Below are positions 25,214-40,882 of a DNA stretch of 64,000 nucleotides, one piece after another. The notes beneath the pieces are model-generated. The model did no database searches, was not told where the DNA came from, and saw only the letters and a list, made by a program, of their open reading frames with translations. Position 1 is the first letter of the stretch, and the number at the start of each line of letters is the position of its first letter. The stretch comes from Chloroflexota bacterium (lineage in GTDB: Bacteria > Chloroflexota > UBA11872 > VXOZ01). The stretch spans positions 2,432,001-2,496,000 of the forward strand of contig OZ219802.1 in the NCBI GenBank assembly GCA_964291655.2, in the 5' to 3' direction. The position numbers and the translations under genes were made by a program.

Positions 25214-26257
25214 CTACGCCGCAGTAACCGTAATGCCGGTTCCCTCGCCAACCTTGCCGATGATCCAGAGCGGCTCGTTGGCGGCGCGGAATTCTTCTAC
25301 CAGTTGGGGTTGCTGATGAGGCGGTACCGCTGCCAGGAGGCCGCCGCTGGTCTGGGGATCGAAGAGGAGCTCGGCGAGCGCGGATGGAATGTCCCCGTCC
25401 AGGGTAAGTAGCCCTTCGTCTTCCAGGTGCGCGCGGTTGCGGTCCAGACCGCCGGGCACCACGTCCTCCCGGGCGTATTCCAGCGCACCGCTCAGCATCG
25501 GAATCGCCTGTGCGGCAAATTCAAAGCGTACCTTGCCGTGGCGCGCCATCTCCATAGCGTGGCCGAGCAGGCCGTAGCCGGTCACGTCGGTGCAAGCGTG
25601 GACAGTGAATTGTTGGAGTAGGCGCGCGGCCCCGCCATTCAGGCGGCACATGCTGGCGACAGCTTCTTCAAGATGTCCGGGCGCGACGCCGCCGCGCTTG
25701 AGAGCCGTGGTAATCACGCCGGTGCCAATCGGCTTCGTAAGGACCAACAGGTCGCCCGGCTGGGCACCGGCCTTGGTGAAGATGCGTTCGGGATGTACCT
25801 GCCCCGTGACAGCCAAGCCGTACTTTGGTTCTTCGTCAGTCACCGTGTGTCCGCCCGCGATCACCGCGCCGGCCTCGATCACCTTGTCCGCGCCGCCCTG
25901 GAAGATGCGGCTCAGGATGTCCAGATCGAGGTCGTCGGGAAAGCCTGCGAGGTTCAGGGCAAAGAGCGGCTCGCCCCCCATGGCATACACATCGCTCAGG
26001 GCGTTGGCGGCCGCAATCTGTCCGAAAGCGTAGGGATCGTCGACGACCGGCGGGAAGAAGTCCGCCGTACTGATGATGGCCTGTTCGTCGCTCATACGAT
26101 AAACGGCGGCATCGTCAGGCGCGGTGAGACCTACCAGCAGATTGCTATCGGATTGTGAAGGAAAGGCGCGCAGTACCTGCGCGAGCTCGGCGGGGCCGAG
26201 TTTGCCCGCTCACCCGGCGCAGGAAGCCAGGCTGGTTAGTCTGACCGGTGATGACAT
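25214..26257 (-). CDS. selD: Selenide, water dikinase SelD; selenoprotein with in-frame UGA (Sec16)
   Basis: ATG at 26257 with GAGGAG SD: MSSPVRLTSLASCAG-U-AGKLGP...DDAAVY, in frame with the track ORF (DFFPPVVDDP, NALSDVYAMGG, TDVTGYGLLGH, DPQTSGGLL); TGA at 26212-26210. Confidence 0.94.
26181..26209 (-). promoter_or_regulatory. SECIS-like hairpin of selD
   Basis: Immediately 3' of the UGA: GCGGGCAAA-CUCGGC-CCC-GCCGAG-CUCGC. Confidence 0.65.
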
Positions 26258-29250: not shown

Positions 29251-30609
29251 ATGCGCGAACGCATCGAAGACGCGCTAAAGCAACATACCGCGGACTACGT
29301 GGAGGTCCGCATCGAGGAAACGCAGTCCACGAATATTACCTACCGGGGCAAGGACTTGGAGGAGGTGGGTACAACCACGCAGCTTGGCGGCTCTGTGCGC
29401 GCCGCAGTTAACGGCGGCTGGGGCTTTGTTTCCTTCAATCGGATCGATGGTCTGCAAGAAAAAGTGTCTCAAGCTGTCAGTCAAGCGCGTCTTGTAGGCA
29501 ACGAAAAAACGGAATTGGCCGACGTGCCGCCGGTACAGGACGTGGTGCGGGTCTCCATGCAGCGTGATCCACGTGAGGTCGCGCTGGCGGAGAAGAAGCA
29601 CCTTATGGACTCGTATGTGGAAGAAATCTGGCGGACGCCCAAGATTCAGACTTCCACGGTGCGCTATGGCGACGGCTACCGTAAGCAGTATTTCGGTAAC
29701 TCAAGTGGAACATACATTGAACAAGAGCGGGGACGCGTAACTGCTCATTTCGGCGTCGTCGCGCGTGATAACGGCAATGTGCAGCAAGCACGGTCAGGCT
29801 TTGCCAGCAGCGAGGACTATGGCGTCGTGGAAGGACATCACGACGAGGTGCGTGAAACGGCCGAAAAAGCCGTGGGGATGCTCGCTGCCACACCGCCAAA
29901 GGGCGGGGAGTTCATGGTGATTCTCGACTCCACCCTGGCGGGTGTTTTTGCGCACGAGGCGTTTGGGCACTTATCGGAAGCCGATCACGTGTATGAGAAC
30001 GACAAGCTCAAAGAGATCATGGTCCTGGGCCGCACATTCGGCGGCAAGTACCTCAACATCATAGACAGCGGACGGGTGCAGGGCCTCACCGGCTCGTTCG
30101 CGTACGATGACGAAGGGGTGCCTACGGGCAAGCAATACCTGATCCGCGAAGGCGATTTGGTGGGGCGGCTGCACTCACGGGAGACCGCGGGCAAGATGAA
30201 CGAAGCCCCTACGGGCAATGCCCGCGCCCAGAGCTACCGTGTGCCGCCGCTGGTCCGCATGCGCAATACGGCTATCGAGCCGGGTGAGACTCCTCTGGAG
30301 GATATGCTGGCGGAGGTGAAGGACGGCGTCTACTGCAAGAACTGGTACGGCGGCCAGACAAGCATGGAGATGTTCACGTTCTCGTGCATGGAGGCCTATG
30401 CCATCCGGGATGGTAAGTTGGCCGAGCCGCTGCGTGGCGTAAATCTTTCCGGCAATGTCTTCACGACGTTGGAGAACATCGTCGCCGTGGGCAACGATTT
30501 TGCGTGGGACCCCGCGGGCGGAACGTGCGGCAAGGGCGGCCAGTCGGCACCGGTGGGCGACGGCAGCCCCCACGTACTCATTAGCAAGTGCTTGGTGGGA
30601 GGTCAGTAG
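29251..30609 (+). CDS. tldD: TldD family metalloprotease
   Basis: HEAFGHLSEAD, YDDEG, TGNARA, RMRNT, C-terminal CGKGGQ. Confidence 0.92.
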   Translation: MRERIEDALKQHTADYVEVRIEETQSTNITYRGKDLEEVGTTTQLGGSVRAAVNGGWGFVSFNRIDGLQEKVSQAVSQARLVGNEKTELADVPPVQDVVRVSMQRDPREVALAEKKHLMDSYVEEIWRTPKIQTSTVRYGDGYRKQYFGNSSGTYIEQERGRVTAHFGVVARDNGNVQQARSGFASSEDYGVVEGHHDEVRETAEKAVGMLAATPPKGGEFMVILDSTLAGVFAHEAFGHLSEADHVYENDKLKEIMVLGRTFGGKYLNIIDSGRVQGLTGSFAYDDEGVPTGKQYLIREGDLVGRLHSRETAGKMNEAPTGNARAQSYRVPPLVRMRNTAIEPGETPLEDMLAEVKDGVYCKNWYGGQTSMEMFTFSCMEAYAIRDGKLAEPLRGVNLSGNVFTTLENIVAVGNDFAWDPAGGTCGKGGQSAPVGDGSPHVLISKCLVGGQ

Positions 30610-37627: not shown

Positions 37628-37927
37628 ACGAGAGACCCAGGCAGCACGTCCACGTGGGTGATGCTTGATGCCCCACGTGGCCCCCTTGATGGCACTGCTC
37701 TTGACACAACTCTAGTTTGGTCGAGCGATTGCCGCCATGGGTCGTGGCAGAAAGAGCCCAGCGACGTACGCAGGTGGGTTCCGCATTTCTACGTCTTGGC
37801 AGAATCCTCGCATTAAATGGTACTGACATACCAATCATTCGCGTCTAGAAATAGTTCTCGAATGGTACAATTGCAAGGTGGAAGCTAGGATGTGGGATCG
37901 CGTTCGAGCCGGTGGGAGAATCACGAA

Positions 37928-38131
37928 GTGGAGATCAACTGGGAATTCGCCGCAACAATAGGAACGGTTATCGCGGCGGCCATAGGTCTGGTTTGGCGAT
38001 TCGAGACTCGCATCTCTGGAATTGAGAGCCGGCTTGGAGACCGCATGACTGATCTGTTCGACCGGGTTTCTCGCAATGAGGGAAAGCTTGAAGGCAACCT
38101 TATGCAAGCAAGCGGACGTGGGGAAACTTGA
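37928..38131 (+). CDS. Small hypothetical protein (TM helix plus coiled coil)
   Basis: VEINWEFAATIGTVIAAAIGLVWRFETRISGIESRL...; start uncertain. Confidence 0.5.
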   Translation: MEINWEFAATIGTVIAAAIGLVWRFETRISGIESRLGDRMTDLFDRVSRNEGKLEGNLMQASGRGET

Positions 38132-38299
38132 GAGACGTAATAAATTCTCCATGTAGAAACGGCGCCTAGGCGTAGCAGCCTTGCTACTTGGGATTCGAGC
38201 GAGCACGATCCGGTGCGCGTGAAAACTGCAAATTCACTTTGAAGAATCGCTGCCGTATGGTTGCCTAGGTCATCCGGCATGATATGATTAAGTATGTAT

Positions 38300-38673
38300 G
38301 GGGATGAGTGGATTCGACAGGGCTGGGAGGCCTGGAACTGCGAGCCGAGGTGCTATCACCCTCGTTAATCAGATAGCAACTTTTTTAAGTGCCAACAAGC
38401 ACAATTTTGCTCTCGCGGCCTAAATAGAGCTGTGACGTCCATCTGCTCTTCCTCCGGTGAGCGCAGCGTGGGCGACCTTTTAGCCGGAGTGCCGCAGTCC
38501 ATGCGGATAATATCCGCCGCCTTCGGGGACTGTGAAAGACAAACGGAGGCTAATTCTCAGAGGTTTTCGTCCGCTCGTGCTCTGGGAATGAAACCCAAAA
38601 GCTGACTACGCTCGTAGAGGTTGCAGGAAGAACAGCTTTGGACGGGGAGTTCGACCCTCCCCCATCTCCACCA
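38300..38673 (+). ncRNA. ssrA: tmRNA
   Basis: 5' GGGGATGA..GGATTCGAC, 3' GTTCGACC..CCATCTCCACCA; tag frame 38391-38423 encodes ANKHNFALAA*. Confidence 0.96.
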
Positions 38674-38844
38674 AAGAGACAGTCAATTGCAAGTCTGCCC
38701 TATAGACTACCGGCGGCTTGCACCATTTGCTCAGGCATGACGAGGTTGTCATCGTTGTATCGTGGCTGCCGCTAGGCGGTGGTTCTAAGTTCTTGAGACC
38801 AGTGTTTCACTGTGTGGCAGAAGACGTTAATCTGAGGCCCGTTA

Positions 38845-38853
38845 TGCTATAAT
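38845..38853 (+). promoter_or_regulatory. Extended -10 promoter of the HesB-like gene
   Basis: TG-C-TATAAT about 60 nt before the GTG start. Confidence 0.55.
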
Positions 38854-38915
38854 GCCGATGCGAGGAGCTGACTCAAGAGCATTTCGCGTTAGGTTGGAAG
38901 AAAGAGAGCGACAAC

Positions 38916-39227
38916 GTGATTACGGTTACGGACTTGGCGGCGGCTGAATTACAGCGGCTTATGACGGATAACGACATGGATGATGCCAAGCTGCGCATCT
39001 TTGTGCAGAGCGAGTGCGGCTGCGGCAAGGTGAACTTCGGCATGGGCTTCGACCAGCAGGTTGAAGATAACGATCAGGTGGTTGACTCTTCCGGGGTCGG
39101 GGTGGTGATGGATCCGCAGGCGTTCGCGGCGCTGGATGGCGCATCGGTGGAGTTTGTGAGTGAAGGCGCGCGCCGCGGTTTTACCATAAGCGGGGTGGAT
39201 ACCGCCGGCTGAGGCGGCGGTGAATAG
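38916..39227 (+). CDS. HesB/IscA-family A-type Fe-S carrier; candidate selenoprotein (UGA 39210-39212, then GGGE, TAG)
   Basis: ITVTD.AA..L, LRIFV, CGCG, MGFD, LDGASVEF, GFTI; ends at 39212 if UGA is a stop or at 39227 with readthrough. Confidence 0.85.
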
Positions 39228-39249
39228 AAAGCCCGTGTAGGCTTTCACC
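39213..39249 (+). promoter_or_regulatory. Candidate SECIS hairpin downstream of the HesB UGA
   Basis: GAAAGCC-CGTGTA-GGCTTTC, loop 21 nt after the UGA with G at loop position 2 followed by U; no U-tract. Confidence 0.55.
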
Positions 39250-39299
39250 AAGGCAAGATCGGACAATAAGGAGCATTTGGCTTTTCCTGGCTGAACAGG

Positions 39300-39710
39300 G
39301 AAGCGGAATGCTCCTTTCGCTTTGCCGTCAGCAACGCGTCAGAAGCGTGCGGAATCTTGCGCTGCGGCCAGTCGATGGCCATGATCCTGGACAGGTGCGG
39401 TCCCAGGGACAGCGACTGCGGCGCTACCGAAGACATCGTGCATCCACTACGGCCCCTCACAGTCTTGCTCATGCTGCTCGGCATCAGCATGCTCCAGAGC
39501 TTACCCTTTCACCGCCGGGCCTTGGGCTCGCTGGAACACTTCCACCGCTCGCTCAGGTGCGAGGCGCTCACCGGCCGCAACTCTTCAATCCTCGCGCACT
39601 GCCGGCGTGTATTCGAAACTTGGCGCGACTTCGCAGACTGAGGGCAGCCTAATCAACCTGAAGCGCCTTCACTCTGCCCTCGATATTGAAACTCTGGTAT
39701 TGCCAACTGG
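39300..39710 (+). pseudogene. Decayed IS481-like transposase (integrase core) fragment
   Basis: LTVLLMLLGISMLQSLPFHRRALGSLEHFHRSLRCE...CRRVFETWRDF, then after a frameshift/stop NLKRLHSALDI, resembling the IS481/IS3 pattern PYHPQT.GK.ERFHRTLK.E...YN..RPH.AL. Confidence 0.65.
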
Positions 39711-39712
39711 GG

Positions 39713-40882
39713 CTACACCTCCGCGCGCCGGTCTTCCCAGGCATGCCAGTAGAGGGTCTCGATTTCCTCGTGCGATGCTTGGCGGGGGTTGCTGGCAGCG
39801 TTGGGGTCCCGGGAGCCGTTGGCAACCATGTGGGGAAGCGCTTGGGACAATTGCTCTTTCGTTACCCCAACTTCCTGTAGTGATGCCGGTATGCCAGCCT
39901 GGGTACGCAGCTTTTTCAGGGCCTCGACGAGGCAGGCAATGGGTCTATCTCCGCCCAGGCCAAGCCGCGCGGCCAGTTCGGTGTAGAGATCTGCTGCTGC
40001 CTGCGCGTTGAAGGCGACGACGTGCGGCAAGAGCAGCGCATTGGCGCGGCCATGGGAGATGCCGAAAGCCGGCGTGACTTGGTGCGAAAGCGCGTGGCAA
40101 AGTCCCAGTCCGGCGCGCATAGTAGCGCCGGCCATGGTCGCGGCCACGTGCATCTCGGCGCGGGCAGGCGAGTTTCTTGATTGTTGTACGGAAGCGGGCA
40201 GGTGCGCTATGACAGCGGCAATCGCCGCGCTTGCCAGACCTTGCGTCAGGCGATGGGATTCCACACAGGCGTACGATTCTACCGCATGCGCCAGCGCGTC
40301 GTAGCCGCTGTCTGCCGCCACGTGGTGCGGCATGGTGGCTGGCACCGCCGGATCGAGGATGGCCGCGTCGGGCGGGCCGGTAAAGAGGATTCGCTTAACC
40401 GGGGGTTGTGCGGCGGTCTCTGTAATCACCGCTCCCCGGCTGACTTCCGAGCCGGTGCCACTGGTGGAAGGAATGGCGATGCAAGCGATTTGGCCGGCCT
40501 CGCGCGGCGGCGGATTGAAGCCCGCGGCCACGAGCTCCGGCACGGATGTGTTTGGGGTTTCGCAGGCGGCACGGATAGTCTTGGTGACATCCAGCGTAGA
40601 GCCGCCGCCCAGGCCGACGATCGTATCCGGCGCAAACTCCTCGGCAAGTGCCACGCCCGCGGCGCAGGTCTCCTGCGATGGGTCGGGCTCGACGGCGTCG
40701 AATGTGGTCGTGGCTGCGCCCGCCTGGTGCGCCAGGCCGCAGACGCGTTCGGTGAATCCCAACTGCGTCATCGCGGGATCCGCCACCACCATCACCCGCT
40801 TGCCGCAGAGTGACGGCAGCACGTCTAACGCGCCGTCGCCAAGATGAATCTCGGTAGCGATTGAAAAAGACTGGATCTCCAC
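39713..40882 (-). CDS. Iron-containing alcohol dehydrogenase
   Basis: GLGGGSTLD, PSTSGTGSE, DALAHAVE, HALSH, HGRAN; AGGAGG SD before GTG. Confidence 0.92.
   Translation of the reverse strand: MEIQSFSIATEIHLGDGALDVLPSLCGKRVMVVADPAMTQLGFTERVCGLAHQAGAATTTFDAVEPDPSQETCAAGVALAEEFAPDTIVGLGGGSTLDVTKTIRAACETPNTSVPELVAAGFNPPPREAGQIACIAIPSTSGTGSEVSRGAVITETAAQPPVKRILFTGPPDAAILDPAVPATMPHHVAADSGYDALAHAVESYACVESHRLTQGLASAAIAAVIAHLPASVQQSRNSPARAEMHVAATMAGATMRAGLGLCHALSHQVTPAFGISHGRANALLLPHVVAFNAQAAADLYTELAARLGLGGDRPIACLVEALKKLRTQAGIPASLQEVGVTKEQLSQALPHMVANGSRDPNAASNPRQASHEEIETLYWHAWEDRRAEV

Follow-up and report, generated by a model that had tools for sequence, protein, structure and literature searches.

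A predicted C-terminal selenocysteine in an unannotated HesB/IscA-fold gene from one genus of uncultured Chloroflexota

The window analyzed here, a stretch of 64,000 nucleotides from a Chloroflexota bacterium (contig OZ219802.1, positions 2,432,001 to 2,496,000), carries on its plus strand an A-type carrier-like gene of the HesB/IscA fold at 38916..39227. According to gene callers, its open reading frame starts with a GTG at 38916 and stops at a TGA at 39210-39212, giving a product of 98 amino acids with the C terminus GFTISGVDTAG. If this in-frame TGA (39210..39212, +) is read as selenocysteine (Sec), the frame continues as U99-GGGE to a TAG at 39225-39227, the Gly-Gly-Gly-Glu tail and true stop occupying 39213..39227 (+), and the protein comprises 103 amino acids. 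A preliminary description of this DNA had proposed such a readthrough, and the translation reproduces both ends of the protein as well as the N-terminal ECGCG that holds C34 and C36 (39015..39023, +). Since the loss at the C terminus amounts to five residues only, gene callers would hide the selenoprotein completely.

Upstream of the gene lies the tmRNA gene (38300..38673, +), an arrangement that recurs with the same orientation in 16 of 16 loci of 20 kb. On the other side of the tmRNA gene, a low-complexity intergenic stretch (37630-38290) with short ORFs that have no Pfam match may be the remnant of an element integrated near ssrA. The extended -10-like motif TGCTATAAT (38845..38853, +) is a candidate promoter, the same 9-mer being present upstream in eight of nine relatives; a sigma-70 scan, which requires a -35 box, found nothing for the gene. 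Downstream of the Sec gene, 13 of the 17 genus loci have rnhA, which in this genome is located elsewhere (C2:1031377-1031841), so that the interval 39320-39700 has been rearranged. No Fe-S genes adjoin the Sec gene, its neighbors across the genus loci being tmRNA and rnhA. Regarding expression, an RNA run labeled as sponge metagenome (X9) contains a 352-nt contig from a 94%-identical relative, with 22 differences, that spans 38898-39249 and hence the gene plus the hairpin described below; this contig has no cover on either side, may be library DNA, and shows presence rather than ends or levels. The other three of the four RNA runs mapped cover the tmRNA only, absence of cover elsewhere being no evidence either way, and the small shares in the 15 RNA or possibly-RNA runs listed come probably from tmRNA as well. 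Three of 18 RNA-run or neighbor observations carry no weight for function.

The ortholog is present in 17 of 17 genus genomes with 82-98% identity, always with a single TGA at codon 99, and no TAA or TAG occurs at this codon among the 17. The three codons that follow encode glycine in all of them, and the N-terminal pair is likewise encoded throughout as TGC-GGN-TGC. The true stop, on the other hand, varies, being TAA or TAG at codon 103 in seven genomes and TAG at codon 104 in the remaining 10. These 17 Sec genes are not independent, since all of them belong to one genus, and the invariance of the GGC codons after the TGA is partly codon bias, as Gly37 and Gly75 likewise have GGC throughout. 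A control comparison took in seven real neighboring genes at up to 16 loci, with 10 shadow ORFs set aside. In six of them the stop codon varies and 0-1 of the next 11 bases are invariant, whereas the carrier gene keeps its TGA in 16 of 16 loci together with eight of the 11 following bases.

The seventh control gene (29251-30609), which overlaps the next gene, keeps its TAG in 13 of 13 loci and five of the 11 following bases. A conserved stop codon has a precedent in the neighborhood, a point for the alternative that the TGA of the carrier gene is a true stop of a 98-amino-acid truncated paralog, with the GGGE codons and a hairpin at the mRNA 3′ end persisting as vestiges in a young genus. Moreover, Cys-less degenerate carriers exist, one of them in this genome, and every database version (P0002-P0009) terminates just before the Sec codon, although the latter reflects gene calling only. 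However, TGA accounts for just 30% of the stops in the genome (482 of 1590), and a Cys ortholog that is described below has an identical tail.

A bacterial-type SECIS candidate is located at 39227..39246 (+). It consists of a 7-bp stem (GAAAGCC paired with GGCUUUC) and the loop CGUGUA (39234-39239), which starts 21 nt after the UGA and has G at its second position followed by U, exactly as first described. Two refinements are needed. The additional lower pairing GGU/ACC, also proposed at first, forms in this genome but is absent from the consensus structure of the 17 orthologs. Also, the element was said to straddle the real stop codon, which is barely the case here, the G of the TAG being the first base of the stem, and does not hold for the seven orthologs with the stop one codon earlier, in which the stem is wholly 3′ of it. 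Being almost wholly in the 3′ UTR, the hairpin is unconstrained by coding. Folded alone (39222-39252), it reaches -10.1 kcal/mol with a z score of -4.25, none of 200 shuffles being as stable, but longer stretches of 46 and 61 nt from the UGA are unexceptional (z of just -1.22 and -0.87).

The 7-bp hairpin with a CGUG loop is conserved in 17 of 17 genus genomes, and the ortholog alignment places indels only past the hairpin or inside its loop. Across 13 distinct sequences, pairing holds in 91 of 91 cells of the stem, with one C-G/U-G change and one A-U/G-C compensatory pair; this last pair may be a single event, and 309 of 500 shuffles likewise attain one. The hairpins were also evaluated under the bacterial SECIS criteria taken from PMC13188914 (loop of 3-9 nt, stem of 4-16 bp, G at loop position 1-2 followed by G or U, spacing of 16-37 nt, and energy ≤ -7.5), using a custom script that considers contiguous stems only. 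The model recovers 16 of the 17 orthologs, including this gene at -8.6, and one ortholog at -5.9 falls short of the energy threshold, a point in favor of the true-stop explanation. The background at the stops of long ORFs is 11 of 680 for TGA, 27 of 1018 for TAG, and 11 of 521 for TAA, and none of 19 Cys homologs passes (0 of 18 four-Cys genes, nor the Cys ortholog L142).

A second long stem-loop lies at 39268..39316 (+), with -34.1 kcal/mol and a z score of -5.15. Similar hairpins occur in both relatives that were folded (z of -3.99 and -5.07), and its 5′ arm is conserved in the genus. This element, which was unflagged by the terminator scan, is a better candidate for the transcript end than the SECIS-like hairpin. 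The first hairpin was in turn rejected as a terminator, given its fixed UGA spacing, the stronger separate hairpin downstream, and the absence of a U-tract; in agreement with the preliminary description, nothing terminator-like was found in 38600-39800. Another hairpin, enclosing the UGA, was set aside; it forms in this genome but its 5′ arm varies among orthologs. With regard to the TGA as a true stop, a spacing of 21 nt between the UGA and the loop in all 17 orthologs despite indels just beyond, together with the separate downstream hairpin, argues against it, and we consider it very improbable. The TGA, four codons before the real end of this iron-sulfur-carrier-like gene, is almost certainly read as Sec.

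The genome, which is 97.6% complete, encodes selA (562 bits), selB (357 bits), and tRNA-Sec (67 bits), all above cut-off. The window itself holds selD (25313..26242, -), also above cut-off (TIGR00476, 383 bits), with one in-frame TGA in the context CAG-U-AGK and a GUA-loop hairpin downstream, so that its SelD is indeed predicted to contain Sec, as had been noticed before. Among the other 16 genus genomes, selB is present in 15 and absent solely from one that is 69% complete. Some 2 kb upstream of selB and in the same orientation is a canonical ErpA-like gene (both within C1:661397-665659, -), and the SUF genes are about 1.6 kb away from tRNA-Sec (all within C2:574849-581417).

A coding-potential scan of all in-frame TGAs in the genome gave 75 candidates, seven of which were chosen by eye as clear Sec genes. 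Pfam assigns four of these to AhpC/TSA-redoxin, one to OsmC, and one to a phosphatase fold, and leaves one without a match. The G of the loop is the 23rd base after the UGA in the carrier gene, in a TlpA-like gene, and in the phosphatase-fold gene alike; the other five of the seven failed a strict test for a 6-bp stem. Apart from the phosphatase-fold gene, the candidates lie at C1:187974 and at C2:821661, 822599 (-), 968008, 1286878, and 1327989, and comprise a TlpA-like protein with TPRs (UGC), three lipoprotein-like redoxins (UxxC), an OsmC-like protein (UxxT-like), and a membrane Trx-like protein, the one without a Pfam match. The phosphatase-fold gene (C2:2297120-2297578, +; L111:1620-2078; PF22784, PF00782) has its TGA at the position of the catalytic Cys (H-U-GSGFG) and the Arg replaced, and seven Cys homologs elsewhere have HCxxGxGRT. 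Its TGA and an 8-bp GUA-loop hairpin are present in 17 of 17 genus genomes, and such a Sec gene is absent from Table 1 of PMC13188914 and was likewise not returned by the literature search.

To assign the carrier protein to a family, it was scored with C in place of U. It passes PF01521 (42 bits, cut-off 26.3) and TIGR00049 (62.8 bits, cut-off 58.8) and remains below cut-off for the IscA, SufA, and ErpA equivalogs, for NF038090 (43.6 against 85 bits), and for TIGR01911 (22.5 against 66.35 bits). The AlphaFold model, obtained from a 75-row alignment, has a pLDDT of 83.7, with residues 98-103 under 50. A structure search with this model returned nine PDB chains at E ≤ 0.001, all of them IscA/SufA/ErpA/DsrR-like (IscA, SufA, HI1723, AQ_1857, DsrR); the best match is IscA (PDB code: 1r94) with a TM score of 0.79, and the range across A-type carriers is 0.68-0.79. 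The genome also encodes two paralogs, a canonical ErpA-like carrier (C1:665357-665659) and a Cys-less HesB-fold protein. The latter (L029; C2:768178-768438, -) has an acidic tail, adjoins two tRNA-Ser genes, and has a terminal TGA with no SECIS-like hairpin.

In the alignments, C36 corresponds to the canonical first Cys of the carriers and C34 to an insertion shared with a four-Cys subfamily, whereas at the C-terminal CxC, U99 stands at the first Cys and G101 has taken the place of the second. The Sec column holds Cys in 13 of 13 four-Cys rows in one alignment (A5) and is at least 90% conserved in another (A7). The motif of A-type carriers is given as Cys-Xn-Cys-X-Cys in PMC7144353, in whose available text Sec and the four-Cys form go unmentioned; the present protein departs from this motif, its third position being Gly in 17 of 17 orthologs, and the NPN that precedes the canonical C-terminal CxC is also missing. 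Based on these positions, nothing has been swapped end for end. The reversed ligand layout of the preliminary description is then apt as a description (CxC...U against C...CxC) but not as a history, C36 being the normal Cys and C34 deriving from the four-Cys subfamily. Its central proposal, that the UGA is read as Sec where the C-terminal ligand stands and that the SECIS lies at the real stop or beyond it, is upheld by the presence of selABC, the alignment of the TGA with a conserved Cys, and the conserved hairpin.

A natural Cys counterpart comes from a metagenome contig (L142, one of seven loci), which carries an ortholog's 3′ half with 63% identity across 59 columns and, like the Sec gene in most genus loci, has rnhA downstream. 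This sequence has TGC at the Sec codon and the tail G-C-GGGE-stop, as in the Sec genes, and the identity of the tail shows that the frame runs through the TGA. Also, since a tail with a single chalcogen exists in Cys form, the loss of the last Cys is not tied to Sec. The contig lacks the 5′ half of L142 and with it the region of the N-terminal CxC.

The four-Cys subfamily has an N-terminal CGCG, a C-terminal GCGCG, and often a His tail, and occurs in Chloroflexota and other bacteria (L112, L121-L137; P0014-P0031 and others). By eye, about 20 of 148 proteins listed from a profile search of 1.84 billion representatives are of this form, as are 18 of the 19 best non-genus loci in a search of 401 Chloroflexota genomes. 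No dedicated NCBIfam model exists for it, and it was not found in the literature examined either. The inserted N-terminal CxC is common to this subfamily and the Sec genes, four-Cys members are the best non-genus matches in both searches, and in P0014, P0017, and P0019 the GF is followed by nine residues and Cys, just as it is followed here by nine residues and U. However, the four-Cys relatives keep both C-terminal Cys residues and have neither a TGA nor a SECIS-like hairpin (0 of 18).

The simplest path suggested by these sequences would start from a four-Cys ancestor (CxC...CxC), proceed through loss of the last Cys to a C-GGGE tail, and end with the change of the remaining Cys to Sec in the genus. 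The trees support this path moderately. With all columns, the Sec clade falls within a group in which 37 of 38 rows are four-Cys (SH-aLRT 90); without the motif columns, three four-Cys rows are its sister (SH-aLRT 84), and the four-Cys group breaks up. L142 and the JGI protein P0013 group with the Sec genes in both cases (SH-aLRT 93 with all columns and 98 with the motif columns removed), both trees being unrooted quick searches on 83-107 columns. Alternatively, L142 could be a reversion from Sec to Cys. P0013, with 99 amino acids and about 60% identity, has the N-terminal ECGCG and ends in GGG without Cys, and may possibly represent a second TGA-truncated Sec lineage; a search for its coding DNA did not recover it.

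So far, the Sec variant is confined to one genus of uncultured Chloroflexota. A search for related loci across 185,579 species gave 15 genus loci and 15 distant canonical matches, and 44 genomes of the same class contain no ortholog. In the 401 Chloroflexota genomes, the TGA appears only in 11 genus rows among the matches listed, beyond which there are 218 weaker matches. Two protein searches found only genus members and P0013.

Regarding function, we infer that the protein most probably carries Fe or Fe-S on the IscA fold, with Cys, Cys, and Sec as ligands, and Sec recoding and carrier function taken jointly are, on balance, somewhat probable. For recoding, SelB-GTP-Sec-tRNA would bind the 7-bp hairpin situated 21 nt past the UGA, residue 99 would be incorporated as Sec, and translation would stop four codons on at the TAG; without selenium, the 98-amino-acid product would have no C-terminal ligand. 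In the folded protein, C34 and C36 at the tip of a β-hairpin and Sec99 on a flexible Gly-rich tail would offer three chalcogen ligands for iron or a cluster; as in IscA, binding would probably take place at the interface between the two subunits of a dimer. Binding between subunits is reported for cyanobacterial IscA (via PMC10301553). The selenolate of Sec99 would then be the ligand that moves and exchanges while a cluster is loaded or handed over. Housekeeping functions would be covered by the ErpA-like paralog and the SUF system, and the Sec protein is probably accessory, because the genome has sufB, sufD-like, and SufU/NifU-like genes in addition to the canonical ErpA-like carrier and the Cys-less paralog. 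More tentatively, and as a possibility that we rate a little short of probable, the selenolate on the C-terminal arm could be a direct and exchangeable ligand of the Fe-S cluster that is handed on (Cys, Cys, Sec), with the SECIS moved almost entirely into the 3′ UTR and with Sec arising independently in the HesB fold via the four-Cys subfamily.

A different use of the same residues would be a redox or S/Se relay, in which Sec99 exchanges with the C34-x-C36 dithiol through a selenenylsulfide or perselenide. The C-terminal Sec arms of other oxidoreductases provide the analogy, and the flexible tail (pLDDT under 50) agrees with it. In addition, L142 lies directly upstream of a YruB-family glutaredoxin-like gene, which is followed by rnhA, and most other Sec candidates of the genome are redoxin or OsmC proteins. 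In the same direction, most uncharacterized selenoproteins probably serve in redox roles according to PMC13188914, and no function is clearly assigned to the known HesB-like selenoprotein (PMC11097638). Nonetheless, glutaredoxin is present in none of the 17 genus loci searched, and the whole IscA core is kept along with the three ligand positions. Also, CxC, as opposed to CxxC, is unusual as a redox motif. On this evidence a relay seems unlikely.

A third function for a selenoprotein of this kind would be to bind or buffer a soft metal or metalloid (Cu, Hg, As, or Zn) instead of iron. The His-rich tails that are frequent in the four-Cys relatives point in this direction, as do the metal genes that adjoin two of 18 four-Cys loci, a CsoR/RicR-like repressor with a copper P-type ATPase at L124 and an arsenite-methyltransferase-like gene at L121. 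However, the neighbors are unrelated in the other 16 loci (E ≤ 1e-12, within about 1.5 kb), and the Sec genes have neither a His tail nor a metal-resistance neighbor. Soft-metal binding is considered distinctly improbable, and the Fe/Fe-S carrier is the preferred function.

If the selenolate does act as an exchangeable cluster ligand, the protein could serve as nature's own test of which of a carrier's ligands departs first and why selenium was chosen. For A-type carriers, the roles of the three Cys ligands and whether the cargo is iron or a cluster remain matters of debate (PMC10301553). Since nature provides a Cys/Sec pair that has just one ligand at the C terminus, this ligand could be viewed directly by Se EXAFS and 77Se NMR. 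Moreover, a compact SECIS outside the coding sequence would constitute a natural design for C-terminal Sec insertion. These prospects concern one genus of uncultured bacteria.

The 2026 inventory of 119 prokaryotic selenoprotein families has in its Table 1 one HesB-like entry, with UxGP, one Sec, and TIGR01911, and treats a differing Sec position as a separate subfamily (PMC13188914). Since this inventory splits families by Sec position and lists HesB-like proteins only with UxGP, the carrier gene would be a new entry. A single HesB-like family is also given in PMC9312934 and PMC1794560, what the HesB-like selenoprotein does is called unclear in PMC11097638, and HesB is not named in the text of PMC13326102 (BSepDB), a silence that carries no weight. 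A literature search whose coverage left out subscription journals found no report of a C-terminal Sec in the IscA/HesB fold. The gene is almost certainly an unannotated selenoprotein gene. It would differ from the other HesB/IscA selenoproteins in the position of Sec, has a counterpart with Cys in nature, and probably descends from four-Cys proteins.

A comparison with the known Sec-containing models agrees with the earlier claim that the protein is distinct from the catalogued HesB-like selenoproteins. The CC/Se motif selenoprotein (NF041239) is not among the 11 NCBIfam matches at E ≤ 1, and its CxxU is absent here; a search for NF041239 members in Chloroflexota genomes gave no matches anywhere, the controls being silent too. 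The IscA_HesB_Se family (NF038090) shares the HesB/IscA fold and one Sec, presumably at an N-terminal position, but the protein described here falls below its cut-off. The HesB-like selenoprotein (TIGR01911) likewise has the HesB/IscA fold and one Sec, but its UxGP is absent here, where Sec is surrounded by G-U-G-G-G, and its Sec cannot sit at residue 99, because the model has 92 positions and the match ends at residue 91. No member of either family exceeds the cut-off in 151-201 Chloroflexota genomes (0 of 151 for NF038090). Finally, with the A-type carriers IscA, SufA, and ErpA (PDB codes: 1r94, 2d2a, 2apn, and 1x0g), the protein has the fold in common, and C36 and residue 99 align with their first and second conserved Cys. 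In contrast to these carriers, its CxC...U-G-G pattern comprises an extra N-terminal Cys, Sec in place of the second Cys, and Gly in place of the third.
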